This document shows positions 3,616-19,826 of a stretch of DNA of 64,000 nucleotides, piece after piece. The stretch is from Candidatus Beckwithbacteria bacterium. GTDB taxonomy: Bacteria > Patescibacteriota > Microgenomatia > UBA1400 > CG1-02-47-37. Below the pieces are notes generated by a model. That model worked only from the letters and a program-made list of their open reading frames with translations, had not been told where the DNA came from and made no database searches. The DNA lies in NCBI GenBank assembly GCA_026397255.1, contig JAPLVF010000013.1, forward strand, positions 150,062 through 214,061, written 5' to 3'. Numbering within the stretch: position 1 is the first letter of the stretch; each line of letters begins with the position of its first letter. A program made the translations under genes and the position numbers.

Positions 3616-3692
3616 AGTATTTTGGGTACAATCTGTTAATTATACGCTTAATTGATATAATTATATTATCCGGATCACTGAATTAAACTATA

Positions 3693-3745
3693 ATTTGATT
3701 GCTTTAATCGTTAAAAAGAGAGGAAATTCCTGACGGCTGCGATTT
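3693..3745. repeat. 53-bp direct repeat, copy A, abutting the radical-SAM gene stop codon
   Basis: atttgattgctttaatcgttaaaaagagaggaaattcctgacggctgcgattt. By-eye alignment to copy B at 5310-5362 matches about 47 of 53 positions. Confidence 0.8.
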
Positions 3746-5258
3746 AAAAATGACTTTGGCTTAGCCAATTTTTATAACCGGCATCGAGATCTCTCTGGAT
3801 CTTATTGTCCATATACCCTCTCGCCTCAAGTTCTATGGTTGATAAATAAGTTTCCACCCCCCAAGGTAATCCTGATTTAATTATTGCAAGCATAAGGTTG
3901 GTCGCTGCCATTTTTGAGTCGAAATTGTTTCTGAATGTATTTGTAATTTCTTTTGGTGTATATAATGTTCTCATTAACCAATAATACCCCTGTTGGAGCT
4001 GGTCAGATGTCATATTTTTTGGTTCAAAAACGGAAATTCGATGGTTGTAATGCAATGTATCTCTATCTTTAATCCTTCCTTGTCTTTCCATCTGAATTCC
4101 CCATGGAGTAGATGGATATGGCGTGGCCAGATGCAAAAATGTGTAAGGAACTTTGAGCGATTTTAATATGTAAGCATGCCTGTAAAATGTATCGGGAAAG
4201 CTATGATTATCCAAACCAACAACTACAGATAGATTTAATGGTATACCCATCTCCTTAAAAACAACTTCTGCTTTTGCGAGTAATGTGACTTCTTTATCCT
4301 TTGAACCCGCAACGCGTGGGGTGACTATGTCGTCCGCTCCATAAAGAAAGGAAAAACATCCTCCCCCACCATATTTTGCTGACATAAGACGCAAAAGACT
4401 TTTATCAGGGCCAAAATTTTCTAAATCTTCAAGAAGAGGAGCAACCGTCCCTTCTGTGTACCAATGAATTCCTGTTTTATTCAAATAAGTAAATAGCTCA
4501 TATAAAACTTCTCTTGGGATGGCTGAAGTATTTAAGTCTGTAGAAAATAAATGGTCGCCTTTTCCTAAGCCCATCTGCTTAATTTCCTTAATAATATCCT
4601 CGGCGCTTCTATACCTTACCTCATCGTCCCCACCTCTTTGCATTCTAGTCGGACTGCAAAATGAGCAATAATTAGTACAGCCTCTTTGCCATTCTTGCGG
4701 ATGTCTACGCAGTTTTTCCAGAACTCCCGGTAATTTTGAAAAAATGGACCTATCCGGATAAACATAATCCTTCATATCAAAAGGTTCCATTTTTCTTGAA
4801 TCATATTCATCTTTAAGCCTTCCTGATAAAAGATCGGTCATAAATTCTTCCGCAACAGGTTCAAATTCGCCCTTTACCCGGACATCAGCTTCAGCAAACG
4901 ATTCAGGGCTAAAAGTAGGACTATAGCCACCAACGATAACCCTTTTACCTTTTAGCTTGGCAATTCTTGTCGCTTCCTTCGCCATTGATGTATCAAAGTG
5001 TCTGGCTGAGATAAAAACGTTTCCAACATTTTCAATTAATCCCTCAAGAGCGGAAGATCCTTTCGGAGACATCTGCGCATAGGTAGTCTTAAAGCCGGCA
5101 GCTTTCAGATAGGAACTGACTATGGCGATTCCAAGAGGATCAAGGTGTTCCAAATATTTCCGTATTTTCCCAACCGCCGGCCTTTTTTCATCATAATGTT
5201 GAGGGCCGGCTAAGAGTAAAGCTCGTCTTTCTACTGACATGCGGTCATTATAGGACAT
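3744..5258 (-). CDS. B12-binding-domain radical SAM protein
   Basis: 504 aa. Contains the CTNYCSFC radical-SAM CxxxCxxC cluster, preceded by a Rossmann-like N-terminal domain (VIVGGYSP...). The gene is bounded exactly by the 53-bp direct repeats. Confidence 0.6.
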   Translation of the reverse strand: MSYNDRMSVERRALLLAGPQHYDEKRPAVGKIRKYLEHLDPLGIAIVSSYLKAAGFKTTYAQMSPKGSSALEGLIENVGNVFISARHFDTSMAKEATRIAKLKGKRVIVGGYSPTFSPESFAEADVRVKGEFEPVAEEFMTDLLSGRLKDEYDSRKMEPFDMKDYVYPDRSIFSKLPGVLEKLRRHPQEWQRGCTNYCSFCSPTRMQRGGDDEVRYRSAEDIIKEIKQMGLGKGDHLFSTDLNTSAIPREVLYELFTYLNKTGIHWYTEGTVAPLLEDLENFGPDKSLLRLMSAKYGGGGCFSFLYGADDIVTPRVAGSKDKEVTLLAKAEVVFKEMGIPLNLSVVVGLDNHSFPDTFYRHAYILKSLKVPYTFLHLATPYPSTPWGIQMERQGRIKDRDTLHYNHRISVFEPKNMTSDQLQQGYYWLMRTLYTPKEITNTFRNNFDSKMAATNLMLAIIKSGLPWGVETYLSTIELEARGYMDNKIQRDLDAGYKNWLSQSHF

Positions 5259-5304
5259 TATTTTCTAAATACAACAATTCTTTGTAGAACCTAAAGGCGA
5301 TGAG

Positions 5305-6048
5305 TTATGATTTGATGGCCTTAATCGTTAAAAAGAGAGGGAATTCTGAACGGCTGCGATTTTCCATTTTGGCAGCGCCACCCTCGCTGGATTTATCCGA
5401 AGTCCATTCTTCAATTAATTGAATGACAAAACCGGCTGAGGCCAGCATTTGGGAATAAACCGACAGCGGCTGATGAAAACTCCAGGTCACGGAAGAATGG
5501 CGCTGGCCGGGGTGCATCTGAATGGGAATTTCTAAAGGAGACAAATAACGGTTAATCCGGCGATACTGCAGTTTGTTAGCTTCATCAATCCCCCAGCTGG
5601 ATTGGCGGGGAATCCGGAAACAAGGATGGTTAAGGACAATGACTAAAGTGCCATTTTTAATTAGGTGCTTCCCGGCATTAGTGATGACGCAGGCCGGAGT
5701 TTTAATGTTTTGTAAAGATAAAATTAAAGTAGCGTGGGTAAAGTCCTGGGCCACAGACAGCGGTTTAGACACGTCAGCCACAAGGTATTGATGGTGGGTA
5801 TTTTTGTCGGAACGCTTGGCAGATTCAATTAAGTTCGGAGATAGATCAATCCCGGTATAACTAATGGCCGGGGCCAAACGGCGGGCTAGAACGCCAGCAC
5901 CGCAAGCTAAGTCTAAAATTTTACTTTTTGAATTTAAATTTAACAGCTTTAGAACACCCCCAAGAACAATGTGTTCGTGATAATAGTGACCGGAACCGGC
6001 AGTTAACTCGCTATACCAGCGACTATCTTTTTGCCAAGAAGTTTGCAT
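5305..6048 (-). CDS. Class I SAM-dependent methyltransferase
   Basis: Motif I ILDLACGAGVL and a Rossmann-fold methyltransferase pattern. The C-terminal tail lies inside repeat B. Confidence 0.6.
   Translation of the reverse strand: MQTSWQKDSRWYSELTAGSGHYYHEHIVLGGVLKLLNLNSKSKILDLACGAGVLARRLAPAISYTGIDLSPNLIESAKRSDKNTHHQYLVADVSKPLSVAQDFTHATLILSLQNIKTPACVITNAGKHLIKNGTLVIVLNHPCFRIPRQSSWGIDEANKLQYRRINRYLSPLEIPIQMHPGQRHSSVTWSFHQPLSVYSQMLASAGFVIQLIEEWTSDKSSEGGAAKMENRSRSEFPLFLTIKAIKS
5310..5362. repeat. 53-bp direct repeat, copy B; also encodes the last ~18 codons of the methyltransferase gene
   Basis: atttgatggccttaatcgttaaaaagagagggaattctgaacggctgcgattt. Its reverse complement reads ...MENRSRSEFPLFLTIKAIKS followed by a stop. 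Confidence 0.8.
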
Positions 6049-6602
6049 AGACGGGAATTAATTAATGATTGGGGGAGATGGCGGGATTGCCATTTATTGA
6101 TTAAAAATTTCATGGTTTCAACTTTTTCGTAAGGAAAAATAATCCAGGCATCGGTTTTATAACCATAAAAATCCGGCTTAAAAATTGAGTGAGGTTTGTA
6201 AAAAAGTGAGGCGGTGGTAATGCTGCGGACGTTATTTTTTAATAAATGGCTTTTTGTAAACTTAAATGATTCGCCGGTATCGGCAACATCATCAAACAGC
6301 AATACCTGTTCGCCTTTCAGGCTAACCGGAAAATCCTGGTAAATCTTTGGCTTAACAAATCTTTGATTAACCCCGGAATAAAATTTGATACCTAAACTGG
6401 CCACCTGTCCTACTTCCAAAAAATCGACTAAAGAGCGGGTCATCGGCCAACCGCCTTTAGCTAAAGTTACAATCCGGTCGAATTTTTTGCCGGCCTGAAT
6501 CATTTTTTGAGAAATTTGAAACGCTAAATCGTTCATGTCATCCCAAGTGGGAGTAATAAATTTAATTTTTTCACCGGGAAAACTAATGTTTGGTAAATTC
6601 AT
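6003..6602 (-). CDS. Phosphoribosyltransferase family protein (purine PRTase-like)
   Basis: PRPP-binding motif VLLFDDVADTGES. Overlaps the downstream methyltransferase by 46 bp. Confidence 0.55.
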   Translation of the reverse strand: MNLPNISFPGEKIKFITPTWDDMNDLAFQISQKMIQAGKKFDRIVTLAKGGWPMTRSLVDFLEVGQVASLGIKFYSGVNQRFVKPKIYQDFPVSLKGEQVLLFDDVADTGESFKFTKSHLLKNNVRSITTASLFYKPHSIFKPDFYGYKTDAWIIFPYEKVETMKFLINKWQSRHLPQSLINSRLCKLLGKKIVAGIAS

Positions 6603-7068
6603 AGAAAGTAAAATTATAATTATTTTCAGTATAGTCTGCTTTCTTTAATAATTTAAAGTGGGAGTAATCGGGGAAAAAGACGTCGGCGTGAAAGTCGCCT
6701 TTAACTTTAGTCACATAAAGCTTATCAACCAAATTTTGGGCTAAAGCCTGACGGTAAATTTCAGCGCCGCCGATAATGAAGACTTCTTTTTTATCGATAG
6801 ACTGAGCTAGATCGATGGCTTCTTTTAAAGAGTGGGTGATCTCTACATTCCGTTTTGGAACGGAATAGGGGTGGCGGGTAACGATAATATTGGTCCGACC
6901 AGGTAAAGATTTGCCTATGGACTCGTAAGTTTTTCTGCCCATAATCACCGGGTGGCCGGTAGTGATGGTTTTAAAATGGCTAAAATCTTTTTTGATATGC
7001 CAAAGCAGCCGGTTTTTAGCGCCGATGCCTAACTTATTATCATGGGCCACAATAATCGAAATTTTCAT
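6583..7068 (-). CDS. folA: Dihydrofolate reductase
   Basis: 161 aa. MKISIIVAHDNKLGIG...LLWH...DF..FK..T.G..VIMGRKTYESIG is the classic DHFR N-terminus, and the gene sits next to thyA. Confidence 0.85.
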   Translation of the reverse strand: MKISIIVAHDNKLGIGAKNRLLWHIKKDFSHFKTITTGHPVIMGRKTYESIGKSLPGRTNIIVTRHPYSVPKRNVEITHSLKEAIDLAQSIDKKEVFIIGGAEIYRQALAQNLVDKLYVTKVKGDFHADVFFPDYSHFKLLKKADYTENNYNFTFYEFTKH

Positions 7069-7075
7069 AAATTTA

Positions 7076-7102
7076 CTCTATCACATTCCGGGAATGTGAT
7101 TA
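7076..7102. repeat. REP-like palindrome, subtype I (copy 1), in the folA-thyA intercistronic gap
   Basis: ctctatcacattccgggaatgtgatta has 10-bp perfectly complementary arms. The same 26 bp recur at 46776-46802. Confidence 0.8.
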
Positions 7103-8050
7103 GAATCCTCCGACAACGGTAATATCGGCTTTAATGCCGGAATGCGGATTGTAGCCAATAACCTCAAAATCTGCGAATTTAAAATCGTCAATGTTGGTAA
7201 CTTTGGGGTTTATTTTCATCACCGGAAACGGACGGGGCTGGCGTTTCAACTGAGTCTTGACCTGTTCAATATGATTGGCATAAATATGGGCGTCGCCGAA
7301 AGTGTGGATAAACTCACCCGGCTGGTAACCGGTAACCTGGGCGAGCATTAAAGTCAGTAAAGCGTAAGAAGCAATATTAAACGGTACGCCTAAAAACATA
7401 TCGGCCGAGCGCTGATATAAAAGCAGAGATAATTTATTAGCGGTAATATTAATGTGAAACAGGGTGTGACAAGGAGCAATGACCATGGAAGCGTCGTGTG
7501 AGCCGGACATTTCGTAAATACAGCCGGCGTTCCAAGCGGAAATAATGTAGTGCTTTTTTTGTGGATATTTTTTAATCTTCTCAATCGCCCAGCCGAGTTG
7601 ATCGATAGTACGGGGCTTGCCCGCCGAAGCCTCGGCGAAGGCGGGCCAGTGGCGCCATTGGACGCCGTAAACTGCGCCTAGTTGGCCGTATTTTTCGACA
7701 AAACCGGATTTATTTTTCAGGTTAACCATAAATTCTTCATAAGGTATCGGTTTGGTAACGCCCCAGCTATATTTTTTGTAGGCCCATTCGTCCCAAATGT
7801 GGACGTCATTGTCGATTAAATATTTAATATTGGAGGAGCCGGATAAAAACCATAAAAGTTCGTGGATGATCCCGCGGACAAAAACTTTTTTAGTGGTTAA
7901 AAGCGGGAACCCTTTGGACAAATCAAAGCGGATTTGCCGGCCGAAAACCGATTTTAATTTGACCCCGGTCGAGTGGCTGATTTTCCATTGGCCGTTGTCC
8001 AGAATGTCCTGAAGCAAATCTAAATATTGATATTCCGGGTGTTTTGACAT
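7100..8050 (-). CDS. thyA: Thymidylate synthase ThyA
   Basis: ThyA motifs: R..DLS.GFPLLTTKKVF, LWFL.G..N and ...PCH.LFH. The start is placed at MSKHPEYQYLDLL; the ORF-track start at 8104 adds an unlikely 18 codons. Confidence 0.9.
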   Translation of the reverse strand: MSKHPEYQYLDLLQDILDNGQWKISHSTGVKLKSVFGRQIRFDLSKGFPLLTTKKVFVRGIIHELLWFLSGSSNIKYLIDNDVHIWDEWAYKKYSWGVTKPIPYEEFMVNLKNKSGFVEKYGQLGAVYGVQWRHWPAFAEASAGKPRTIDQLGWAIEKIKKYPQKKHYIISAWNAGCIYEMSGSHDASMVIAPCHTLFHINITANKLSLLLYQRSADMFLGVPFNIASYALLTLMLAQVTGYQPGEFIHTFGDAHIYANHIEQVKTQLKRQPRPFPVMKINPKVTNIDDFKFADFEVIGYNPHSGIKADITVVGGF

Positions 8051-8077
8051 ATAAATAGTTTCTGTTATCATTAAACA

Positions 8078-8560
8078 ATGAAAACAAAAAAAAGCCAACC
8101 CCAACTAAAAAACCCAAGAATCTTCGTGATTGTTTTAGCAATTTTAGCGTTTTTAGGTTTGTTGTTTTATTTTAAAAATCAAATTGTGGTGGCTTGGGTA
8201 AACGGCCGGCCAATCTGGAAGTTGAGCTATAGCCAAGAATTAAATCGACTGGCCGGACAACAGGCATTAAATTCGGTGATTACTAAAACTTTAATTACCA
8301 GTGAAGCTAAAAAACAAAAAGTCAGTGTGGCTAATAATGAAATTCAGGCCGAGATCAGCCGGATAGAAGACTTAGCAAAACAGCAAGGGACTGATTTAAA
8401 TGAACTGTTAACTTTACAAGGGATGACGAGGCAAGACCTGACGGAAGATATCAAATTAAACAAATTGGTAGAAAAAATGGCCGGAACTGAAAGCGCGCAG
8501 ATTCAGGATTGGCTGACCAATTTACAAACGCAGGCGAAGATAATTAAGTGGGTCAAGTAA
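8078..8560 (+). CDS. Hypothetical membrane-anchored protein (SurA-N/chaperone-like?)
   Basis: 160 aa with an N-terminal TM helix followed by a charged helical domain. No firm family assignment. Confidence 0.4.
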   Translation: MKTKKSQPQLKNPRIFVIVLAILAFLGLLFYFKNQIVVAWVNGRPIWKLSYSQELNRLAGQQALNSVITKTLITSEAKKQKVSVANNEIQAEISRIEDLAKQQGTDLNELLTLQGMTRQDLTEDIKLNKLVEKMAGTESAQIQDWLTNLQTQAKIIKWVK

Positions 8561-10168
8561 AACTTTAAAAAGATTGGGAAGAAGAGGTTTAAAAGTAATT
8601 TCGGTTTCTTTCGGGTTAAGCGGGGAATAAAGCTGACGCGGCAGAAATTCCGGTTTTAATAAAACAAAACGGTAAAGGTTTTCCGGAACTAAATTGTACA
8701 AAAATACCGGCTGGCTTAGGCCATTATTAACCTGAAGGTTTAATTTTGTCTGCAATTCGTTTCTCTCATCGTAAACTAACAGCTGAAAATCATTCCCGCT
8801 GACCTGACGCTTAAACAGCATTTTGATATGAGCCACCAATGACGGCGGCGGGACAACTTTGATGGTTTGGTAAAACTTTTCCCCGAAAGGTTTGCCTTTA
8901 AGGCTTAATTGAAGGCCAAGAGAAAAATCTTGATGATCAGGCGGAGTTTTTAAGTTAATTTTAAAATCGGCTGTTTGAAACGGCTCGGTGGAATTAACCA
9001 GACTAACCTGAACCAGGTCCGGAGGAAAATCGCCGCTAGTTAATAAACTAAAATCAGCCGGTGTCCAAATGGACTGGCCGGTATTGGTTAAACTTAAGGA
9101 AAATTCATAAACAGAATTGTCAATTAAGGAACCGGGGATGTTCTTAGAAACAATGCTACTGGAATTATTTTGCTCCGGCCGGCCGGCAATTTTTGGTAAA
9201 GATTGAACCGCATAATAATGGGGGTAAAAATCGGCAGAGTTTGGCTTCCTCCAAGAAAATTGATTAAAGGGGCTTTCGGAATAATTTAAGATAAACGGGG
9301 TAATGGTCACTAAGTTGCTTTGGGTCCAAATTTGGGTAAAGGCTTGAGTATAGCGATCAGTTAAATTATTGGAATAAAAATTAGTCCAGCCGGTTTCCGT
9401 AATAAAAATCGGCAGGGAGGAATTTAATCCAAGGGTTGCAAGGTAATTAACCTCTGCCTGATAGCTTTGCAATGTTCCCAGGCCTTTAGCGGTGGGCAAA
9501 CCGGAAAAATCAGGATTGGGATAACTATGAGAGTTCCAGCCATCAAAAAGCGTAAAAATATCGTGATCGGCTTGATACATACGCTGCCAATAATTAACAG
9601 CGGAGAGGGTGGAGTTAGAGTTGGGGGCGGCGGTATCCAGTCCAGCCGGCAAAATAAAAAAATCTTCTGAAGCGGCCTTTAACTTGTCATGAAATTGCCG
9701 CACAATCGAGCTATATTCCGACGGATTAATCGAGTTCTCCCATTCCAAGGCATGATTGGGCTCATTAAAAAGAATCACATAGCGGTTGGTAACTACCCAA
9801 TTTAAAGAATTAAGGAAATCAACCCAGGTCTGAACTTCCGAAACTTCAGGTTTAACCCAGTAATTTTTTTCAGGATTAGTCGCCAGTCGAACAAGAGGAA
9901 TCAAGTGCAAACGGCGCAATTGATCAAAGACAGTCTGCCATTTATTTTTATCCCGGTCGTTCTGCCGGATGATTAAAGTCACGTAGCCCCAATCGCCTCC
10001 CTGACTATTAACTAAAGCGGCCGCAGCCGGAATATCCGCGGGCTCAAGAATGTGAATACCAAAACGATTATTAGGAACGGATAAAGGATTAACGATTGCC
10101 TGAGCCGGCCGGCTCGAAACCAGTAAGAAAATAAATAAACTGAGAAAAACCCAAAAAATTCTAGACAT
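8522..10168 (-). CDS. Secreted glycoside hydrolase, clan GH-A (GH5-like)
   Basis: Signal peptide MSRIFWVFLSLFIFLLVSSRPAQA. Candidate acid/base motif VILFNEPN and nucleophile motif IFITETGW lie about 125 aa apart. Confidence 0.45.
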   Translation of the reverse strand: MSRIFWVFLSLFIFLLVSSRPAQAIVNPLSVPNNRFGIHILEPADIPAAAALVNSQGGDWGYVTLIIRQNDRDKNKWQTVFDQLRRLHLIPLVRLATNPEKNYWVKPEVSEVQTWVDFLNSLNWVVTNRYVILFNEPNHALEWENSINPSEYSSIVRQFHDKLKAASEDFFILPAGLDTAAPNSNSTLSAVNYWQRMYQADHDIFTLFDGWNSHSYPNPDFSGLPTAKGLGTLQSYQAEVNYLATLGLNSSLPIFITETGWTNFYSNNLTDRYTQAFTQIWTQSNLVTITPFILNYSESPFNQFSWRKPNSADFYPHYYAVQSLPKIAGRPEQNNSSSIVSKNIPGSLIDNSVYEFSLSLTNTGQSIWTPADFSLLTSGDFPPDLVQVSLVNSTEPFQTADFKINLKTPPDHQDFSLGLQLSLKGKPFGEKFYQTIKVVPPPSLVAHIKMLFKRQVSGNDFQLLVYDERNELQTKLNLQVNNGLSQPVFLYNLVPENLYRFVLLKPEFLPRQLYSPLNPKETEITFKPLLPNLFKVLLDPLNYLRLRL

Positions 10169-10171
10169 GTT

Positions 10172-10972
10172 TTAGATTAGGGCAGGCGGTTTACCGGCAG
10201 AATGGGTCACCGGACCTAAAGGGACCTCATTGTGCGGATCGTCAACAAATAAAACAATGACTTTGCCTTTCGTGTTTTTTGGATAAAGACCAAGGTCGAC
10301 CATGACTTGCGGTGAGCCGCCGAATTGCTTACCGGTCTGTTTAGCCGGACCGGCATCGGCGATAACCGCGACTACGGCCGCACCGGTTTGAGGATTAACC
10401 ACTAAAACCTTACGATATTGAAACCACTGCTTCAATTGGTTGGCTTGCTGCGGCCAATCAGGTAAATATAAGGTTTGCACCGCCACATAATATTTTTCCC
10501 GTTCCCGATCCACCTTCGCCAAGGCTTCGGCAGACGAAGCAAAATAACCCCAAGCACCGGTGCCGGGAGCCAGCCCGACCTGGGGAAAGCTACGACCTTC
10601 CAGGGTGTCGCCCGGATAACGCAAGAGGTGCTGCTCCAAACCGATAAGGCCAATTTGGTTATTTAAGCGCTTCCCTTCGAGTTCGGCTACAGCTTTAATC
10701 CCCAGAGTTTTTTGAATTGCTTGCGTGATTGACAATTCTTCTTTTTCGGTTAAAACACGGTTGAACGACGGCAAAACTTTATTTAAATATTTACTTAAGA
10801 TTTTTTTTATTTCTTCATCATTAACTAATCCCAGGGGGAGACGCAATTCCGGCGGCTTGTCCGGCAAAGCTTTTAATGATTGCGAACCGGAAGTCAACAA
10901 TAAACTGCCGGCTAAAGAGGCAGAAGCCAATAAGTTTTTACCACTGATTTTATTCAAGTGTTTTTTGGGCAT
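10172..10972 (-). CDS. Hypothetical exported protein, possible RlpA-like DPBB C-terminal domain
   Basis: Signal-like N-terminus. C-terminal VLVVNPQTGAAVVAVIADAGP...VMVDLG resembles the N..G..V.V.DRGP...IDLS pattern of DPBB domains. The assignment is weak. Confidence 0.35.
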   Translation of the reverse strand: MPKKHLNKISGKNLLASASLAGSLLLTSGSQSLKALPDKPPELRLPLGLVNDEEIKKILSKYLNKVLPSFNRVLTEKEELSITQAIQKTLGIKAVAELEGKRLNNQIGLIGLEQHLLRYPGDTLEGRSFPQVGLAPGTGAWGYFASSAEALAKVDREREKYYVAVQTLYLPDWPQQANQLKQWFQYRKVLVVNPQTGAAVVAVIADAGPAKQTGKQFGGSPQVMVDLGLYPKNTKGKVIVLFVDDPHNEVPLGPVTHSAGKPPALI

Positions 10973-12335
10973 AATTTAACCTCTTTATTGCTTCATCTTT
11001 CCCTAATATATATATAATATCAAACAAGGGCGGAGTGGCCGGTCGGGCGGTAACCACCAATCTTAAGGTCATAAAGGCCTGGCGGGGTGATAAATTTAAT
11101 TTTTGCTGTAACTGATGCAGGTCTGTTTCTAAATTTTTTACTGTCCAAGATTTGAGTACTTTAATTACTTGAATTACCTCTTGCAAATATTTTTTTGTCT
11201 CGACGGCGGACAGTTTTGATTCCTCCAGCAAAGCCTGTTTGTCCACTTTTGGCGGGTTAACAAAATAATCAATTAAATCATTAATTTCCCCCAACTTAAT
11301 CATTCTTTCCTGGATTAAAGGAATAATTTGAGCTAATTGTTTATCGCTTATCTTTAATTTCAGGTATGGTTTAATTAATTGAAGTAAGGTTTTTGGCGGA
11401 GTTTGCCGAATTAATTTAGCGTTAAAATAATTCAATTTTTTAAGGTCAAAAATTGAATTGGCAATTTGGACTTTAGTTAAGTCAAATAAATTAATTAACT
11501 GCTCCATTGTCAGCAGCTGAGAATTATCCTGATAAGACCAGCCAAGATAGGCCATAAATGTGACCAACGCTTCAGGTAAATAACCTTCAGCTTGATAATC
11601 TAAAATGCTTTTGGCTCCGTGGCGTTTAGACAACTTAGCCTTATCCGGACCTAAGATAACCGGAAAGTGGCCGATCTGAGGAATCGGCCAGCCAAAGGCC
11701 TGATATAGAAGAAGGTGTTTGGGAGTGGAGGAAATCCACTCGACGCCGCGTAAAATATGGCTGATTTTCATCAAATGATCGTCAATGACCACAGCCAAAT
11801 GATAAGTCGGATAACCATCAGATTTTAACAGTACCTGATCATCCAATAATTCATTTTTAAACTCAATTCTTGATTGAATCAAATCATCCCAACCGGTAAC
11901 GCCTTGATCCGGCACCCGGAGACGAATCACGTGAGGAGTTTTCTTAACCAAGAGGTTGGTCACCTCAGCCGGACTTAGTTTTAAACAATGCTGATCGTAA
12001 CCCTGACCACGCAGTTTTACCAACCGCTCTTTGGTACAAAAACAATAGTAAGCCAATTTCTTCTTAACCAGCAACTCGGCATGTTCTTGGTAAATTGGTA
12101 ATCTTTCGGACTGAATATACGGCCCTTCGTCCCAGGTAATGCCGACAGTTTTTAAAATTTGTAAAATTTTTTTCAAACTCCCGGGAACTAATCTCTCCCG
12201 ATCGGTGTCTTCAATTCTCAAAATCAATTTCCCCTTATTGTGCCGGGCAAATAAGTAATTAAATAAAGCAGTGCGGGTATTGCCAATATGGGGAATACCG
12301 GTCGGACTGGGGGCAAAGCGGACACGAATAGACAT
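10950..12335 (-). CDS. gltX: Glutamate--tRNA ligase
   Basis: HIGH motif PSPTGIPHIGNTRTAL and the KLSKR (KMSKS) motif. 461 aa. Confidence 0.9.
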   Translation of the reverse strand: MSIRVRFAPSPTGIPHIGNTRTALFNYLFARHNKGKLILRIEDTDRERLVPGSLKKILQILKTVGITWDEGPYIQSERLPIYQEHAELLVKKKLAYYCFCTKERLVKLRGQGYDQHCLKLSPAEVTNLLVKKTPHVIRLRVPDQGVTGWDDLIQSRIEFKNELLDDQVLLKSDGYPTYHLAVVIDDHLMKISHILRGVEWISSTPKHLLLYQAFGWPIPQIGHFPVILGPDKAKLSKRHGAKSILDYQAEGYLPEALVTFMAYLGWSYQDNSQLLTMEQLINLFDLTKVQIANSIFDLKKLNYFNAKLIRQTPPKTLLQLIKPYLKLKISDKQLAQIIPLIQERMIKLGEINDLIDYFVNPPKVDKQALLEESKLSAVETKKYLQEVIQVIKVLKSWTVKNLETDLHQLQQKLNLSPRQAFMTLRLVVTARPATPPLFDIIYILGKDEAIKRLNYAQKTLE

Positions 12336-12337
12336 AT

Positions 12338-13459
12338 TTGCATTTTAACAGAGAAACTAGCTATACTCAAAGAGAAATGGCAACTTTAACAGAAACCGCC
12401 GTTGGGGCCAAAAAAGTTTTTTTATTCGGCTTAGTGGCAGTAGTGGCATTTTTATTGTTACAAGTAGGTTTATTCTTTTTTAACACCTATCTTAAGGTGG
12501 TTAAGCCGGCTCCAACTCCGCCGCCGACAGTAGCTTTTGGTAAACTAACAAAAATTGCCTGGCCGCAAAAATTAAATCCGGAAATTACTTTAAGGTTGGA
12601 AACCACAACCGGAGGAACCCCAGATTTAGGCGATCGAGCCGAGGTTTATTTAATGCCGACATTCCGATCTAATTTTCTGGCACTTGACCAGGCTAAGCTG
12701 ACGGCAAAAAAAATGAGTTTTACCGATCAGCCGAAAGAAATTACCGACAGACGCTACCGCTGGGAAACTGAAGAATTTTTACCCTCAATCCTGGAAATGG
12801 ATATTATCAACGGCTCGTTTTCTTTAAAAAGAAATTGGCAAACCGACCCGACAATTTTGTCAGAAAAACAGTTGCCCGGAAAAGAACAGACAATAATTGA
12901 AGTGAAGAATTTTTTAAGGCAAGTGGGACTGTTAAGTAGCGAGTTGGAAAACGCCAGAATTGAGATTTCCTACTTAACGTTTTCCAGCGGTCAATATCAG
13001 AAAGCGGTGAGTTTATCGGAGGCGGACTTTGTTCAGGCAGATGTATTCCGGCCGGACATCAATAATCACGCCGTCTTTCCGCCCAACCCCCAAAAAGGGA
13101 TTATCAGTATTATTTTCTCCGGATCAAGAGAAACAGCCAAACAAATTATCCAGGTTGATTATAATTATTTCCCGGTTAACTTTGACCAATCGGCCACCTA
13201 TCCGATTAAATCGGCCAGCCAGGCCTGGAGAGAATTACAAACCAAACAAGGATTTATTGCCAGTGTCGGCAGCAGTAGTGAAGTAGTGGCAATAAGAAGA
13301 ATATATTTGGCCTATTATGACAGCGAGACCCCGAACGGGTTCTTAATGCCGATAATCGTCTTTGAAGGCGATAGTGGTTTTTATGGTTACGTGCCGGCAA
13401 TTACTAATGAATGGCTGACAGATTCTCCCAACGGTGATTCGCAAACGTCCAATCAATAA
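12338..13459 (+). CDS. Hypothetical membrane-anchored protein
   Basis: TM helix near the N-terminus and a proline-rich linker PAPTPPPT. No recognised domain. The start may instead be the MATLTE Met 13 codons downstream. Confidence 0.4.
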   Translation: MHFNRETSYTQREMATLTETAVGAKKVFLFGLVAVVAFLLLQVGLFFFNTYLKVVKPAPTPPPTVAFGKLTKIAWPQKLNPEITLRLETTTGGTPDLGDRAEVYLMPTFRSNFLALDQAKLTAKKMSFTDQPKEITDRRYRWETEEFLPSILEMDIINGSFSLKRNWQTDPTILSEKQLPGKEQTIIEVKNFLRQVGLLSSELENARIEISYLTFSSGQYQKAVSLSEADFVQADVFRPDINNHAVFPPNPQKGIISIIFSGSRETAKQIIQVDYNYFPVNFDQSATYPIKSASQAWRELQTKQGFIASVGSSSEVVAIRRIYLAYYDSETPNGFLMPIIVFEGDSGFYGYVPAITNEWLTDSPNGDSQTSNQ

Positions 13460-14306
13460 GACTACGGCTATCACCGAAGCGGTCGCTACTGTCCAAAATA
13501 ACCGTAATAATCCGGTGACCGTTACGCTGGACGTAACCAACTAAACATTCCCCGGCCAATTGAGTTAAGCCGGTTTTAACCCCGGCTAAACCAGGAATCT
13601 GACCCAAAAGCTGATTAACATTTTTAAGCTCGTGAATCACGGTGTTATCGGTGTCGGTGACGGTAATACTAATGGTCGAGACAATTTTGGAAAATTCGGG
13701 ATTTTGGAGGGCAACGGCAGCCAACAGGCTTAAATCATGAACGGTGGTATAGTGATTATAATTATCCAAGCCAATCGGATTAATAAATTGAGTGGAATCA
13801 AGATGTAGACTGTTTGCTTTTTGATTCATGGCTGTTACAAAACCGGCTTCTCCGCTCGGATAAAATTGCGCCAAAGCCACGGCGGCATCATTGGCAGAAG
13901 CGACTAAAAGGCCATAAAGCAGATTTTCGACAGTAATTTTTTCGCCGGGAATTAAATCCATGTTGGATTTTTCCACCTTAATATTGCCGATAGTGACAAT
14001 GTCACTAAGAACATAGTTATCCAAAGCCACCAAGGCTGTCATAATTTTGGTAGTAGAAGCGGGCAAAAGTTTTAAATCAGGATTTTTTTCGTAAATAATG
14101 GCTTTGGAGTCGACGTCAATTACAATGGCCGAACGGCTAGATAAATAAGGAGTGAGTCGCCCAGTAGAATTTAAGGGGTAATCGGAAAAAGAACTGATTT
14201 GGTAATTAACCGGCCGGGTTACCGGGGTAAGAACATCTAATTTAATGGTCAGAAAACACGAAAAAATCAGCGCCAGAATAAGGTTTAAATTTAAAAACTG
14301 CTTCAT
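13404..14306 (-). CDS. D-alanyl-D-alanine carboxypeptidase (PBP5-type serine peptidase, S11)
   Basis: Signal peptide, then SxxK (ASTTKIMT), SxN (SAND) and KTG (GVKTGLT) motifs. Confidence 0.8.
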   Translation of the reverse strand: MKQFLNLNLILALIFSCFLTIKLDVLTPVTRPVNYQISSFSDYPLNSTGRLTPYLSSRSAIVIDVDSKAIIYEKNPDLKLLPASTTKIMTALVALDNYVLSDIVTIGNIKVEKSNMDLIPGEKITVENLLYGLLVASANDAAVALAQFYPSGEAGFVTAMNQKANSLHLDSTQFINPIGLDNYNHYTTVHDLSLLAAVALQNPEFSKIVSTISITVTDTDNTVIHELKNVNQLLGQIPGLAGVKTGLTQLAGECLVGYVQRNGHRIITVILDSSDRFGDSRSLIDWTFANHRWENLSAIH

Positions 14307-15691
14307 TTAACCACTTTAACATGAAGTTCCTTTAGTTGTTCGTCGGTGGCTGGCGAGGGGGCGTCCATGATCGAGACTTGACCGGAGGCGACGGCCGGAA
14401 AAGCCATCACTTCCCGGACACTGGATTCGCCAAAAACGGCCATTAAAAACCGGTCAATGCCCGGAGCAATACCGCCGTGCGGCGGGACACCGTAAGTAAA
14501 GGCCGTGAGCATGTGTCGGAATTCTTCTTTCTGCTTTGAGGTAAAACCGATCAACTCGAAAACTTTTTCCTGGATTTTGGGGTCGTGAATCCTGATTGAT
14601 CCCCCGCCCACTTCGTAACCATTTAAAACTAAATCATGCTGCAAACCCCGGACTTTTAAAGGGTTTTTGTCTAGTAATTTAATATCGTCTGGGTGCGGGC
14701 TGGTAAACATGTGGTGCGACGGAGCAAACTTGGCTTGGCCGGAACCGTAATAAAAGTCCTCTTTGCTTTGCTTAGTAAATAACGGAAAGTCAATAATCCA
14801 GGCAAAGGCCAATTCATCAGAGTTGGTTTTGTCTTTTCTCAAGTCCGGTTTATCGGAACCGTACTGTTTTTTAGCTTGAGCGTGAGTAATTCTGGGCCAA
14901 GGCGACTGAGAAATGGTTTTATGGGGAAAGAGTTGTTTAATGAGCTTGGTAAACATCGCTTCAGTTAATTGAAGAATGTCGTTTTGCTCGACAAAAGACA
15001 TTTCGATATCCAGCTGGGTAAATTCACCGTAAGCCCGGTCGCGACGCGGGTCTTCATCGCGAAAACAACGGGCTATCTGAAAATAACGTTCAAACCCGGC
15101 TACCATCAGCATTTGTTTATATTGCTGGGGACTTTGCGGCAGGGCATAAAAATTACCGGGCTGTAACCGGGAAGGCACGAGAAAATCCCGGGCGCCTTCA
15201 GGAGTCGTTTTGGTTAAAATCGGGGTTTCGACTTCCACAAAATCCTGATTCAATAAATATTGACGGATAAAATTTACCACCCGGGAACGAGCCTTAATAA
15301 TTTGATTTAGGCGCGGCCGGCGTAAATCCAAGTAGCGGTATTTTAAACGGATGGTTTCGTCGATGTCGTGGCCGTCCGTATCCAGCGGGAAAGGTAATTC
15401 TCTGGATTTGGTAATAATATCAATTTTTTCCGCCTGAATTTCGACAGTGCCGGTCGCCAATTTGGGATTAACTAATTTTTCCGGCCGTTTGACTGCCTGA
15501 CCGGTGACGGCCACAACCGACTCCGGTTTTAAATCAATTTTTGACTGAGTGACTATCTGAATCAGGCCCGACCGGTCACGTAAATCAAAAAAAGTAATTT
15601 TGCCGTGGGAACGGACTGAATTCACCCAGCCTTTTAATAAAACGGTTTTAGCGACGTGTTTAACCGCCTCAACCGCCAAAGTTCTTTCCAT
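14303..15691 (-). CDS. aspS: Aspartate--tRNA ligase (short, GAD-less form)
   Basis: OB-fold GWVNSVRSHGKITFFDLRD, motif 2 FQIARCFRDEDPRRDRAYGEFTQLDIEMSF and GGSIRIHDP. The start is placed at MERTLAVE, which is preceded by a GAGGAGGG RBS; the ORF track begins 12 codons earlier. Confidence 0.8.
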   Translation of the reverse strand: MERTLAVEAVKHVAKTVLLKGWVNSVRSHGKITFFDLRDRSGLIQIVTQSKIDLKPESVVAVTGQAVKRPEKLVNPKLATGTVEIQAEKIDIITKSRELPFPLDTDGHDIDETIRLKYRYLDLRRPRLNQIIKARSRVVNFIRQYLLNQDFVEVETPILTKTTPEGARDFLVPSRLQPGNFYALPQSPQQYKQMLMVAGFERYFQIARCFRDEDPRRDRAYGEFTQLDIEMSFVEQNDILQLTEAMFTKLIKQLFPHKTISQSPWPRITHAQAKKQYGSDKPDLRKDKTNSDELAFAWIIDFPLFTKQSKEDFYYGSGQAKFAPSHHMFTSPHPDDIKLLDKNPLKVRGLQHDLVLNGYEVGGGSIRIHDPKIQEKVFELIGFTSKQKEEFRHMLTAFTYGVPPHGGIAPGIDRFLMAVFGESSVREVMAFPAVASGQVSIMDAPSPATDEQLKELHVKVVK

Positions 15692-15720
15692 AACTTTGAT
15701 TATATTGATAAACCCTCCTC

Positions 15721-15744
15721 TTGACAATCAATAAATGTTATAAT
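15721..15744 (+). promoter_or_regulatory. Candidate sigma-70 promoter with extended -10 (TGtTATAAT) and TTGACA
   Basis: ttgaca at 15721-15726 and tgttataat at 15736-15744. The spacer is only 12 bp, so the -35 may not be used. Followed by GGGAGA and the ATG at 15762. Confidence 0.35.
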
Positions 15745-15761
15745 CGGGAGAAATTTTTAAT

Positions 15762-16103
15762 ATGGCTACTATTTGTGAAAGACCATGTCCACTTCCAAAA
15801 TGGGCGCGAAACAAATGTCCTCAAAGTCCAAATAACCTACATTCTTGCCTAAAAAAAGTAAATGAACACATTGAACCAGGAATGACTTTGGGTGATTTAA
15901 AAAAATTAATTATGCCCGCAGATTCGCCCACCCCTCAAGTTCCTCCTTTGGAGCATTTTGTTTCACTTTCAGAGTTATTAGCTGACGAGACAATCTCTCG
16001 CTATGAAATAGAATCATTAGAAATATTATCTGATCAAAAAAAACAGCCAGCGGCTTGCTTGTTAAAATTTAAAAATGGCCGAGAAATGATTTTCAGGTTG
16101 TAA
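15762..16103 (+). CDS. Hypothetical small cysteine-containing protein
   Basis: 113 aa ORF with a good RBS and promoter. A-rich codon usage, unlike its neighbours. No recognisable domain. Confidence 0.3.
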   Translation: MATICERPCPLPKWARNKCPQSPNNLHSCLKKVNEHIEPGMTLGDLKKLIMPADSPTPQVPPLEHFVSLSELLADETISRYEIESLEILSDQKKQPAACLLKFKNGREMIFRL

Positions 16104-17712
16104 TAATCTCTTTTATCTTTAGCTGCAATTCTTTTTTGTTGTGCCATTCATTTTTCTCAAGCGTATAGGCAATATTGACTAATTGGCCGGGGGTAAGTTT
16201 ATCGGCCAGATAGCCTTGATTAAAAGCTATCCCTGAAAATTTTTCAAGACGAAGCTTTAGGTGTTTATTGTCCTGACCGACTGGGCGAAAGTTGATTAAT
16301 TTAACTTGGCTCGTGCAAAAAACCGGCTCGGAGTTCCCAAAACCAAAAGGCCTTAATTTTTCCAGATCAGCCATTAAGTCCCAAGTGATATCCGAAAGTT
16401 TAATCTCGCAATCGATTTCTATAACCGGCTGCAGCTGATTGCCGGATAATTGTGTTTGGGCCAGGTTTTCCAATTTTTTTTGAACTAATTTAATATTCTT
16501 ATTGTCGATCGTAAAACCGGCGGCTAACTCGTGACCACCATGCTCCAACAAATATCTTTCCAAAGACCGGATGTTTTTAATGGCGTTAAACCCCTTAATA
16601 GAACGAATAGAAGCTTTGGAATAATTTTTGCCCAAGGCAATAACCACGGACGGATGATGAAATTCTTCAGCTAAGCGACCGGCAACCAAGCCAACCACGC
16701 CCTCATGGTAGGATTTGTCAGCCACAAAGATTAAAGCTTTTTTTTGATTGGTGGTTAACCACTTTTTTTTGGCATCAAGAAACATGGTTAAAGTTTTATC
16801 CTGACGCAGTTGATTAATTTCCCCTAAATGTTTGGCTAATTTTTCTCCCCGCTCTTTATCTTTGGTACAAACCAGGCGTAAAGAATTTAAGGCGTGTTCC
16901 ATGCGACCCATGGCATTAAGCCGGGGAGCGAAAATAAAACTGACCTGGTGTTCGGAAATATTGGTTAGATCAAGGCCGGCAACTTTAGCTAGGGCTTTAA
17001 GGCCAAAACGTTGGGTTTGGCGTAATTGTTGTAAACCGAATTTAACCAAGCTACGGTTGGGACCGATTAAGGGTACCATATCGGCAATCGTGCCGAGAGC
17101 GGCTAAGTCAAGAATAGTATTTAGCATATAGCTTTTAGTATTTAGCGATTTAAGAATTTCCCGGCTAAAAAACCAGGCCACGCCGGCACCGGCCAACTCA
17201 GTGGTATGAATAATAGTTAAGGCTGGTGGTAAGTGAACTTTCCCTTGTCGATGTTGAGGTAGGTGGTGATCGGTAATAATAACATCAATCCCCAATTTTT
17301 TAGCAAATTCACAACCTTTAAAAGCAGAAATGCCGTTATCGACAGTAATAATGAGGGAGGGATGATCTTTAAGTGATCCTATTCCTGTCGGAGAGAGACC
17401 GCGAACGGGATCGTTGCGTACCGGAATATAGGGCAAAACTTTGGCCCCTAAAAAATTAAGGGCTTCCCAAAGAATGGCGGTGGCGCTGACACCGTCAGTG
17501 TCGTAGTCGCCGTAAATATAAATTAGTTCCTGATTTTTGATAGCCTGTTTGATCCTGGAAATAGCTTTGGCCACCTGAATTTTACTGATCTTTAGATCCT
17601 TAAGTTTAATTTTTTCCGGATTGGTGGGATTAAGAAATTCAACCTGGTCTTTTTTGGTGATCAAGCCGCGTTTTTTGAGTAAGCTTAAAATAATTTTCCA
17701 ATTTTTATTCAT
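16093..17712 (-). CDS. recJ: Single-stranded-DNA-specific exonuclease RecJ
   Basis: DHH-family motifs IYGDYDTDGVSATAIL and IITDHH, with a C-terminal DHHA1/OB region. Confidence 0.85.
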   Translation of the reverse strand: MNKNWKIILSLLKKRGLITKKDQVEFLNPTNPEKIKLKDLKISKIQVAKAISRIKQAIKNQELIYIYGDYDTDGVSATAILWEALNFLGAKVLPYIPVRNDPVRGLSPTGIGSLKDHPSLIITVDNGISAFKGCEFAKKLGIDVIITDHHLPQHRQGKVHLPPALTIIHTTELAGAGVAWFFSREILKSLNTKSYMLNTILDLAALGTIADMVPLIGPNRSLVKFGLQQLRQTQRFGLKALAKVAGLDLTNISEHQVSFIFAPRLNAMGRMEHALNSLRLVCTKDKERGEKLAKHLGEINQLRQDKTLTMFLDAKKKWLTTNQKKALIFVADKSYHEGVVGLVAGRLAEEFHHPSVVIALGKNYSKASIRSIKGFNAIKNIRSLERYLLEHGGHELAAGFTIDNKNIKLVQKKLENLAQTQLSGNQLQPVIEIDCEIKLSDITWDLMADLEKLRPFGFGNSEPVFCTSQVKLINFRPVGQDNKHLKLRLEKFSGIAFNQGYLADKLTPGQLVNIAYTLEKNEWHNKKELQLKIKEIITT

Positions 17713-17732
17713 AACGGCTATAATCTTATCAT

Positions 17733-19100
17733 ATGAAGATTAAGCTGCCTGAATTGGTGGTTAAAGTTTTGGAAACTTTGGAAAAGGCCGGATTTGAAGC
17801 TTATGTGGTGGGTGGAGCAGTCAGGGATATCTTAACAGAAACGCCGGTTAAAGATTGGGATTTCACTAGCGATGCTAACCCAGAAGAAATTGTGAAACTA
17901 TTTAAAGAGGCTTTCTATGATAATCGATTTGGAACCGTGGGTGTGGCGGCTAAACATCTGGAAGAACAATTCGGATTAAAAAGTAAGACTGACAGAGTCT
18001 ATGAAATAACCACTTTCAGAAGCGAATCGGGATATTCAGACAGACGGCGGCCGGATAAGGTGGCGTGGGGAAAAAGCTTAAAAGAAGATTTAAAAAGAAG
18101 GGATTTTACTATTAATGCCATGAGTTTTAATAAAAATCTAAAATTGATCGATCCGTTTGAGGGAGAAAAAGATTTAACCAATAAACTAATTAGAGCGGTT
18201 GGCGACCCGAATAAAAGATTTCAAGAAGACGCTTTAAGAATGATGCGGGCAATCAGAATTGCCAGCCAATTAGGTTTTAGCATAGAAATAAAAACCCTGG
18301 CAGCGATTAGTAAAAACAGCACTTTAATTAAACAAATCAGCGCCGAAAGAGTAAGGGATGAATTATTAAAAATTCTGGGCTCGAAATATCCAAAAGACGG
18401 AATTTTATTATTATTCAGCACGGGAATTTTAAAATATATTTTGCCGGAATTAATCGAGACGCGGGAAATCGAACAGGCGGGACACCACACTAAAGATGTT
18501 TGGAATCACAGTTTGGATAGTTTAGCCGCCTCTCCCTCCCCCAACCCGATTATCCGCTTAGCCACTTTACTTCATGATATCGGCAAACCGATGGTTAAGG
18601 CAAGCCGGGAAGGTAAAGAAATTACTTTTTACAACCACGAGGTCGCCGGGGCCAGAATGACGAAACTTATCAGCCGCCGTTTGCGCTTATCAAAAAAAGA
18701 CAGCGACTTGCTATGGTTATTGGTCCGCTGGCATATGTTCGCTTATGAACCGAAAATGACTGATAAAGCTATCAGAAGATTTATCCGCCGGATCGGCAAA
18801 GAAAATATTAATAATATGATAATGCTCCGGGTTGGCGACCGCATTGGCGGCGGAAGCAAGGCGACTTCGTGGCGGCTACGCGAATTACAGGAAAGGATTG
18901 AGCAGGTATTGTATACGCCGATGCAAATTACTGACTTAAAAGTTAACGGTAAAGATGTAATGGACACTTTAAATATTCCAAGCGGACCGAAAGTCGGCCA
19001 AATTTTGAAAAAAATATTTGATGAAGTAATGGAAGACGCCACCAAAAACGACCGGGAGTATTTGTTAAAGAGAATTAAAGAAATACAAACTCATACTTGA
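17733..19100 (+). CDS. cca: CCA-adding tRNA nucleotidyltransferase with HD domain
   Basis: GGAVRDIL...DWDF polymerase-beta head and the HD motif LLHDIGKP. 455 aa. Confidence 0.85.
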   Translation: MKIKLPELVVKVLETLEKAGFEAYVVGGAVRDILTETPVKDWDFTSDANPEEIVKLFKEAFYDNRFGTVGVAAKHLEEQFGLKSKTDRVYEITTFRSESGYSDRRRPDKVAWGKSLKEDLKRRDFTINAMSFNKNLKLIDPFEGEKDLTNKLIRAVGDPNKRFQEDALRMMRAIRIASQLGFSIEIKTLAAISKNSTLIKQISAERVRDELLKILGSKYPKDGILLLFSTGILKYILPELIETREIEQAGHHTKDVWNHSLDSLAASPSPNPIIRLATLLHDIGKPMVKASREGKEITFYNHEVAGARMTKLISRRLRLSKKDSDLLWLLVRWHMFAYEPKMTDKAIRRFIRRIGKENINNMIMLRVGDRIGGGSKATSWRLRELQERIEQVLYTPMQITDLKVNGKDVMDTLNIPSGPKVGQILKKIFDEVMEDATKNDREYLLKRIKEIQTHT

Positions 19101-19139
19101 CATAATGTAACTTTTAAGTTACTATCAATCTAAATTGGC

Positions 19140-19448
19140 ATGAAAAAGATTTATTATGACAAAAATGCTGATAAAGAACTGGCTGAATTTTCCATTTCAG
19201 TTCAAAAAGTTTTCTTATCTTTAATCAATATTTTGAAAACAACCGGAAAACTGGAGTTTCCGGTAACTAAAAAACTTGAGAAAAATCTTTATGAAATCAG
19301 AGTTAAGTTACAAGGAGAATTCCGAGGTTTTTATGCATATATGGGAAAAGAATTTATTGTCATTCTTCACTTTTTCCATAAAAAGACCCAGAAAACACCG
19401 TTAAAAAACCTAAAAACCGCTAAAAGGAGGTTAAAACAATATGAATGA
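19140..19448 (+). CDS. higB: Type II toxin, HigB / Gp49-like (RelE/ParE superfamily)
   Basis: 102 aa. Contains LYEIRV...GFYAY...FIVILHFFHKKTQKTP, characteristic of the Gp49/HigB family. Overlaps the downstream HTH gene by 8 bp. Confidence 0.6.
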   Translation: MKKIYYDKNADKELAEFSISVQKVFLSLINILKTTGKLEFPVTKKLEKNLYEIRVKLQGEFRGFYAYMGKEFIVILHFFHKKTQKTPLKNLKTAKRRLKQYE

Positions 19449-19746
19449 TAAAATTAAAACCGCAATTAAAAGAGGAGATTTAATTTCTTATGATGAAGTT
19501 TTTTCGCGGTATTCTAAAAAACACCAAAGAGAAATTTTAAAACAAGCCCGCTATTTAAAAGCGGCCATGGCCTTAAGAAAATTAAGAAAACAACTGAAAT
19601 TAACCCAAGAAAAATTGGCCAGTAAAATGAAAGTAAAACGGGAATTTATCAGCCGGGCAGAAAGCGGAGAGCAAAACTTAACCCTGGAAACTCTCTATCA
19701 AATCGCCGAAGCGACGGGTAAAAGTTTTCGGTTTCAGTTTAAATAA
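19441..19746 (+). CDS. higA: Type II antitoxin, HigA-like XRE-family HTH protein
   Basis: LTQEKLASKMKVKREFISRAESGEQNLTLETLYQIAEATGK is a canonical HTH_XRE. The toxin-first gene order is that of HigBA. Confidence 0.65.
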   Translation: MNDKIKTAIKRGDLISYDEVFSRYSKKHQREILKQARYLKAAMALRKLRKQLKLTQEKLASKMKVKREFISRAESGEQNLTLETLYQIAEATGKSFRFQFK

Positions 19747-19800
19747 ATCTACGACGCTTCCAAAAACGAGAGGGAATATTTGTTGAAGAAAATTAAAGAT

Positions 19801-19826
19801 TCTCACATACCGGGTGTGTGATAGAG
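19801..19826. repeat. REP-like palindrome (subtype II variant) 5 bp downstream of the RAYT gene stop
   Basis: tctcacataccgggtgtgtgatagag. The arms tcacatacc and ggtgtgtga pair with one G-T wobble. Confidence 0.75.

Follow-up and report, generated by a model that had tools for sequence, protein, structure and literature searches.

The 64,000-nucleotide stretch of a Candidatus Beckwithbacteria genome that was analysed here (the window; contig JAPLVF010000013.1) contains two short cargo cassettes, one consisting of a B12-binding/radical S-adenosylmethionine (SAM) gene and the other of a HigBA-like toxin-antitoxin pair, and each of them is bracketed by a pair of direct repeats of about 55 nt. At both sites one repeat copy is the 3' coding end of the gene upstream, a methyltransferase gene in the first case and cca in the second. 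The original prediction, made from the letters alone, had described direct repeats of about 47–53 bp around both cassettes, with one copy overlapping the C-terminal codons of the methyltransferase and of cca; the pairs were found to measure 57 and 54 nt, and the gene calls bear out the overlap at both sites.

The methyltransferase site reads along the minus strand, in the order methyltransferase gene, 46-nt spacer, radical-SAM gene, second repeat copy, 73 nt, typA. The gene for the class I SAM-dependent methyltransferase (5305–6048, minus strand) is intact and encodes 247 amino acids with the tail ENRSRSEFPLFLTIKAIKS followed by the stop; its last 19 codons make up the first repeat copy (5306–5362, minus). 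The cargo gene, assigned with Pfam, occupies 3744–5258 on the minus strand. The second repeat copy (3688–3745, minus), a leftover methyltransferase 3' end, begins at the stop codon of the radical-SAM gene and is in frame, reading NRSRQEFPLFLTIKAIKL and stop, the intact gene ending NRSRSEFPLFLTIKAIKS and stop. The conserved downstream neighbour, typA/bipA, follows at 1795–3615 (minus). The aligned copies (3689–3745 and 5306–5362) are 88% identical over 57 nt and are spaced 1617 nt apart; the blastn core is also 57 nt, and the longest identical run is 20 nt.

The cca site lies on the plus strand and is arranged as cca, a 39-nt spacer, toxin gene, antitoxin gene, second repeat copy, palindrome, RAYT-like gene (RAYT, a transposase associated with repetitive extragenic palindromic, or REP, sequences), a second palindrome and the convergent secF. 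The gene for the CCA-adding tRNA nucleotidyltransferase, cca (17733–19100), is intact and has an atypical tail, KRIKEIQTHT and stop; the first repeat copy (19028–19081, codons DATKNDREYLLKRIKE) lies 19 nt before its stop codon. That stop codon falls inside the -35 hexamer of a promoter-like sequence for higBA, TTGACA-17-TACTAT (19097–19125, plus), which carries an operator-like palindrome, GTAACTTTTAAGTTAC, at 19107–19122. The cargo (19140–19746, plus) consists of a HigB-like (Gp49) toxin gene at 19140–19448 and an HTH_3 antitoxin gene at 19441–19746, which overlap by 8 nt (Pfam Gp49, E = 6e-22; HTH_3, E = 4e-15); the NCBIfam HigA match of the antitoxin is below the model cut-off. With the toxin gene first, an overlapping antitoxin gene and a palindrome-bearing promoter-like site, the predicted pair fits the HigBA-type of type II systems.

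The second repeat copy of the cca site (19746–19799), together with its native tail, extends to 19821 on the plus strand; it reads in frame as IYDASKNEREYLLKKIKDSHIPGV and stop, and it ends in the REP palindrome. The leftover copy has DASKNEREYLLKKIKD and then SHIPGV and stop where the gene copy reads DATKNDREYLLKRIKE. The RAYT-like gene (19831–20517, minus) is flanked by the palindrome TCACAYACCGGGTGTGTGA at 19803–19821 and 20541–20559, the whole unit spanning 19803–20559, and secF (20541–21437, minus), a conserved neighbour, ends HHTPGV and stop inside the right-hand palindrome. The two repeat copies are 81% identical over 54 nt, with a spacing of 718 nt, a blastn core of 47 nt and at most 10 identical nucleotides in a row.

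Repeats of this kind are not expected by chance: no direct repeat of at least 45 nt and at least 80% identity within 8 kb arose in 40 dinucleotide shuffles of the window, and the best bit score in the shuffles was 35 as against 70 in the real sequence. The two sites have unrelated repeat sequences. Across all four junctions the window is matched base for base by separate Logan contigs from two sequencing runs (contig L175 matching 3559–5504, L082 matching 4927–6110 and L081 matching 7733–29100), so the structure is not an artefact of binning or scaffolding. The Logan contigs of run SRR20698647 break on both sides of the radical-SAM locus, at 3559–3588 and at about 5504; these breaks may be strain-level branch points, for example to a co-occurring variant that does not carry the insert.

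Scans at the DNA and protein levels revealed no third instance in the remaining 48 kb of the window. In the fetched loci, which total about 2.1 Mb and of which roughly half are from cca regions of related Microgenomates, a blind scan detected the pattern nowhere but in the window and its own strain; the other matches of that kind were all REP repeats flanking RAYT genes.

The differences between the copies have a coding character. Both downstream copies keep the frame of the upstream gene, and the changes are mainly synonymous or conservative. In the methyltransferase pair, 8 nucleotide changes lead to 2 amino-acid changes and the stop is kept; in the cca pair, 8 nucleotide changes lead to 4 amino-acid changes, all conservative, and every variant residue of the leftover copy occurs in functional cca proteins of relatives. 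When equal numbers of substitutions were placed at random, an equally good protein match was obtained with P = 0.0015 for the methyltransferase pair (protein score) and P = 0.004 for the cca pair (0.44% of trials). The preserved frame and the coding-like changes therefore indicate diverged orthologous gene ends and not decayed target-site duplications; judged from their codons, the copies look like orthologous ends that diverged under selection and were placed side by side only recently.

The cargo, for its part, looks foreign in composition. The G+C content at third codon positions is 0.33 for the radical-SAM gene and 0.27 and 0.31 for the toxin and antitoxin genes, against 0.43 ± 0.05 for the window genes. 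The radical-SAM family is rare and patchily distributed, with 45 proteins at E ≤1e-30 among 5.8 billion; the C-terminus of the protein encoded here is complete. The closest homologues (82%, 81% and 69% identical) stand in unrelated contexts and not beside the methyltransferase gene. Nucleotide homology to them begins about 22 nt ahead of the start codon and ends 2 nt beyond the stop codon, thus covering only the open reading frame (ORF) and its ribosome-binding site, and the flanks of the compared homologues hold no conserved recombination site that travels with the gene. Scans of viral contigs found no relatives of HigB or of the radical-SAM protein. In the contig from another metagenome that carries the 81%-identical gene (L170), the sequence AGCAGGCCGGTCTAGG(G/A)CCAT occurs on both sides of the gene, at about 131–160 and at 1741–1769; the contig ends inside the second flanking copy, and either a dispersed genome repeat or a cassette boundary is possible.

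A promoter-like TTAACG-16-TATAGT (3687–3714, minus; a consensus match only) lies inside the leftover methyltransferase copy, about 70 nt upstream of typA. The candidate site is correctly placed for typA, and the leftover copy may thus also carry the promoter of that gene. Its -10 match is lost in the copy attached to the methyltransferase gene, and the 46-nt spacer between the methyltransferase stop and the radical-SAM gene contains no promoter-like site.

Comparison with relatives, comprising about 80 metagenomic cca loci and 4 methyltransferase loci, shows that both sites receive other cargo. The genes cca and secF are convergent neighbours across the cca loci, in many of them with a gap of at most 20 nt or with an overlap. 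The remaining gaps hold only a RAYT gene in some loci and about 20 different cargos in the rest, including toxin-antitoxin pairs, AbiE-like genes and a phosphatase. In the closest cca relative (87% identical, seen in the contexts L163 and L164), the gap is filled by the genes for a TPR protein and a histidine phosphatase. The order thyA, DHFR, PRT, methyltransferase, cargo, typA, greA is conserved around the closest methyltransferase relative (75% identical), with a glyoxalase and an M48 peptidase gene in the place of the radical-SAM gene. By this gene order, the cca–secF and methyltransferase–typA junctions, each lying between conserved genes, are both hot spots for cargo. None of the roughly 80 cca loci and none of the 4 methyltransferase loci, the latter including the 75% and 66% identical relatives, has the tail of the gene a second time, and the 20 or so other cargos at the cca junction share neither a duplication nor a common insertion point. 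A scan of genome representatives with a GluRS query gave a closest genome that is only 60% identical and is usable for distant synteny only.

The relatives also bear on the native arrangement of the cca site. Many cca proteins of Beckwithbacteria end in YHTPGV and stop, which is the translation of the palindrome TCACACACCGGGTGTGTGA at the cca–secF junction. The leftover copy in the window, ending HIPGV and stop, runs straight into this palindrome, then into the RAYT-like gene and then into secF, and the same succession of palindrome, RAYT-like gene and secF follows cca, with no duplication, in at least nine related loci. Since the leftover copy ends in the REP palindrome as the intact cca of relatives does, it would be the natively arranged copy; the one joined to cca ends otherwise, with EIQTHT and stop, within the cassette's own promoter-like site. 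In a more distant relative (L119), a different toxin-antitoxin-like pair directly follows cca at 7420–7980, a 96-residue antitoxin-sized ORF and then an 81-residue toxin-sized ORF, assigned by ORF size and with the protein families not scanned. There, too, the cca stop lies inside the TTGACA -35 hexamer of the cassette, and no leftover cca copy is present.

The REP palindrome TCACACACCGGGTGTGTGA occurs at convergent-gene junctions, in the window at 19803–19821, 20541–20559 and 27329–27347 and elsewhere in the loci L087, L091, L098 and L108. It supplies the last codons and the stop (HTPGV and stop) to genes on either strand, namely the leftover cca copy, secF and an ORF at 27329–27904. As read from these translations, the REP element is in use as a shared coding tail, and it probably serves as a two-way terminator as well.

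The search for machinery gave little. Pfam was run on the cargo, on the genes next to it and on 20 further proteins of the window; neither these scans nor the Pfam annotation of L081 revealed an integrase or a transposase besides the RAYT-like gene, as the original prediction had said of the window; the scans did not cover short ORFs or the ribosomal-protein-like stretch at 46–61 kb. The same prediction had offered the RAYT as a possible agent of insertion, and this suggestion did not hold up. At least nine related loci (L085–L087, L090–L093, L103, L108 and L121) have the RAYT-like gene in the gap from cca to secF, at 56–72% amino-acid identity and with no duplication, and by this distribution the gene behaves as a long-term resident of the junction and not as cargo. 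Within the window the REP palindrome occurs only at 19803, 20541 and 27329; there is none at the left border of higBA and none at the methyltransferase site. A unit mobilised by REP and RAYT was rejected on these grounds, the HigBA cassette not being bounded by REP sequences. The match of the RAYT-like protein to the NCBIfam RAYT model is below the cut-off (56 vs 80 bits). In L092 and L121, perfect 40-nt repeats flank the RAYT-like gene and overlap the cca end as well as the secF end.

On balance it seems likely, if only modestly so, that the two repeat pairs are scars of one-sided homologous recombination with DNA from a related species. At each site the insert is flanked by two copies that are homologous to the recipient and that represent different alleles, which is the mark of such a scar. 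The donor would have been a related species, about 81–88% identical over the repeats, in which the orthologous housekeeping gene was already followed directly by the cargo; such donors are plausible because other cargo accumulates at exactly these junctions in relatives. The incoming piece would have consisted of the donor's last ~55 nt of the gene together with the cargo. It would have recombined through this short homeologous stretch in a RecA-dependent manner, and its other end would have been joined without homology at the stop codon of the last cargo gene. The host recombinase that this proposal needs is encoded in the window, recA lying at 39294–40349 on the minus strand.

Two routes could lead to such a product. 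The fragment may have recircularised and entered by a single, Campbell-type crossover, which would place the homologous stretch on both sides of the insert. Alternatively, homology-facilitated illegitimate recombination may have occurred, with the illegitimate join just inside the gene end. The product would be an intact host gene, the cargo, a displaced in-frame copy of the 3' end and the native downstream sequence. Selection has probably shaped which products survived; the host gene must keep its C-terminus. In experiments in which DNA with homology on one side entered Escherichia coli, 56 of 60 clones had arisen by a single crossover of a recircularised molecule, with the homologous segment duplicated on both sides, and microhomologies of 3–10 bp have been summarised for illegitimate junctions (PMC3240628). 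Set against L170, the sequence TTTTAAAT proves to be part of the cargo end. The cargo end and the methyltransferase tail thus have AAAT in common where they meet, which fits the reported 3–10 bp (PMC3240628).

Several points weigh against this explanation. The homology amounts to only 54–57 nt at 81–88% identity, a poor substrate for RecA. Both non-homologous junctions lie exactly at the cargo stop codon and read TAAATC, and the two duplications are of similar length; a random illegitimate join would predict neither. Two scars within 16 kb, with none in about 2.1 Mb of other loci, are poorly explained by independent rare events. The expected donor order, the methyltransferase gene followed by the radical-SAM gene or cca ending in EIQTHT followed by higBA, was not found in the examined loci. 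Finally, a native copy can be proposed for the cca site only. TAAATC, in the orientation of the host gene, stands at both junctions of cargo and leftover copy (3741–3746 and 19744–19749), and AACTCAT is found near both junctions of gene copy and cargo (19088–19094 and, as the complement, 5300–5306). These motifs may be due to chance in AT-rich sequence (the cargo stop codon is itself TAA), or they may hint at a preferred site.

The foremost alternative, which we nevertheless regard as unlikely, is site-specific integration, in which a tyrosine or serine recombinase, with its gene elsewhere in the genome, would use the gene 3' ends as attachment sites. On this view the cassettes, similar to cis-mobilisable elements (CIMEs), would count as integrase-less, mobilisable or decayed integrative elements and would bring a replacement 3' end with them, in the manner of elements aimed at tRNA genes or gene ends. 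The architecture agrees with this, as an intact gene end, cargo and a displaced end follow one another in direct orientation, and so do the identical 20-nt core in the methyltransferase pair, the close fit of the cargo boundaries to the ORFs and the TAAATC at both right-hand junctions. The repeat sequences of the two sites are unrelated, however, and the cca pair has no more than 10 identical nucleotides in a row; nor was an integrase seen among the scanned window proteins. The duplication and the insertion point, moreover, do not recur with the other cargos of the cca junction, the radical-SAM homologues have no conserved flanking site, and the viral contigs gave no relatives of either cargo.

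A dedicated process that acts in trans in this Patescibacteria lineage, at present or until recently, would be a more novel reading. Its guide would be a homeologous stretch of about 55 nt from the 3' end of a gene, and it would join ORF-trimmed cassettes exactly at the cargo stop codon, giving TAAATC. Such a process would account for two events within 16 kb when the other fetched loci, about 2.1 Mb, show none. We think it rather improbable, and as it overlaps with site-specific integration it adds no share of probability to that alternative. The original prediction had suggested a recurring, uncharacterised insertion mechanism aimed at gene 3' ends. Its own ground for refutation, that no further instances be found, is what the other 48 kb of the window and the 2.1 Mb of fetched loci returned; the cargos of the other cca–secF loci lack the duplication, the homologues of the radical-SAM gene lie elsewhere, and the copies are allele-like. 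The shared pattern of the two sites, the foreign-looking cargo and the recombination-based origin that it had also named are retained, the last being the option that fits best, while the RAYT role is not supported and a dedicated mechanism is not needed.

Equally improbable, in our view, is a single import, in which one block of about 16 kb (3746–19745), with the radical-SAM gene and higBA at its two ends, replaced the resident segment from the methyltransferase gene to cca, both ends being joined illegitimately just inside the resident genes and the leftover copies marking the outer borders. In its favour, the leftover copies stand outside a single co-linear block, one at each end; the roughly 2.1 Mb contain no other scars, so that two independent events within 16 kb would be unexpected; and the two junctions read GATTTA and TAAATC on the plus strand, that is, TAAATC at both. 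Since the methyltransferase gene and cca are divergently oriented, however, their leftovers would lie outward in any case, and a single event would have to include two illegitimate joins. There is also no break in composition between the block and its flanks, and relatives rank alike for genes inside (recJ, cca, aspS) and outside it (secF, secD), a test of little resolving power.

A long target-site duplication is less probable still. An insertion process of unknown kind, possibly involving the RAYT, would have cut with a stagger of about 55 nt, and the copies would have diverged later. The duplications are indeed similar in length, and one site adjoins a RAYT-like gene. Random decay would be expected of a non-coding copy, though, and both leftover copies are in frame with allele-like changes, at the probabilities given above; the RAYT is shared with relatives that have no duplication, no REP sequence occurs at the methyltransferase site, and the cargo ends bear no terminal repeats. 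Unrelated events or an artefact have as little to recommend them: the genome is metagenome-assembled and the Logan contig breaks described above hint at strain branch points, but a chimeric assembly of co-occurring strains would need shared k-mers at junctions that have none, all four junctions recur base for base in the contigs of two runs, and tandem gene duplications overwritten by cargo would need two precise overwrites, each leaving only about 19–26 codons.

Other classes of element were also considered and rejected. Terminal inverted repeats and subterminal hairpins are absent from the cargo ends, and IS200/IS605-type ends were rejected for this reason. Against an insertion sequence or transposon with target-site duplication stand the lack of inverted repeats and the divergence of the copies, which is coding-like and not neutral. 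For an integron cassette, the sequence after the cargo ORFs would have to be an attC-type palindrome; it is a copy of the gene end, and no IntI was present among the scanned proteins. A diversity-generating retroelement was dismissed since the mismatches involve all four bases and are not specific to adenine, and no reverse transcriptase was found among the scanned proteins. Xer/dif-type sites were rejected by eye, as the two repeat sequences share no motif. Targeting of a tRNA gene was set aside as well: in the whole window a single tRNA or Rfam match was obtained, a tRNA at 40401, which is remote from both sites.

That tRNA-Pro gene (40401–40474) overlaps the mechanical ORF start of a DUF2207 membrane protein (40382–42124), and the true start of the protein must therefore lie further downstream. 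A second family of short hairpin-like repeats, CCGCCGTCGCGTAAAGCTATGGCGG, occurs at 29638–29667, 29798–29827 and 32001–32030, the first of which overlaps the 3' end of an ORF at 29255–29671. Just downstream of secD there is a small MazE/AbrB-type antitoxin-like ORF (22697–22885, minus), with no toxin gene beside it in the L081 annotation.

In the candidate phyla radiation (CPR), whose genomes are ultra-small and streamlined, the gain of accessory genes is poorly documented, and few mobile-element genes stand beside the cargo. Scars such as those described here hold on to the resident version of a gene end as well as the incoming one; the preservation of both versions would thus be direct sequence evidence that genes were gained from a diverged relative through recombination, with no machinery encoded by an element. 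They also indicate that insertions into tightly packed loci may survive when the overlapped gene end is duplicated. Should many more such scars with a common junction motif come to light, they would point instead to an unrecognised insertion system.

Among known systems, the products of single-crossover and homology-facilitated illegitimate recombination (PMC3240628) come nearest. The original descriptions are from Acinetobacter baylyi, Streptococcus pneumoniae and Pseudomonas stutzeri (PMC3240628). Such products share with the window an insert that stands between direct copies of the homologous segment, with a homologous junction at one end and a non-homologous one at the other; a microhomology of a few bases is seen in the window at the methyltransferase site. 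No element-encoded enzyme is needed, RecA being supplied by the host. The experimental scars are 109–950 bp long with identical copies, whereas those described here are 54–57 nt long and 81–88% identical, and here the process is deduced from its product only, in an uncultured CPR bacterium.

Minimal mobile elements (PMC3787668) resemble the two sites in that different whole-gene cargos occupy the same conserved slot without mobility genes; the classical examples involve homologous crossovers in both flanking genes and leave no scar, in contrast with the partial gene duplication on one side seen here. Integrative elements that target gene 3' ends or tRNA genes, and CIMEs, share with our cassettes the restoration of the gene end by incoming sequence and the displaced native end as a direct repeat. 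The cassettes differ from them in the lack of a detected integrase, the tiny cargo (0.7 and 1.6 kb), the absence of a shared core between the sites and the failure of the boundaries to recur in relatives. The likeness to REPtrons is confined to the RAYT-like gene with REP palindromes adjoining the leftover cca copy; the cargo is not bounded by REP sequences, and the RAYT is syntenic in relatives that have neither the cargo nor the duplication. The closest known kinds are therefore single-crossover or homology-facilitated illegitimate recombination scars, situated at hot spots of the minimal-mobile-element type (PMC3240628, PMC3787668). The arrangement would thus be a known kind of scar in an unusual organism, for which no new mechanism is required.

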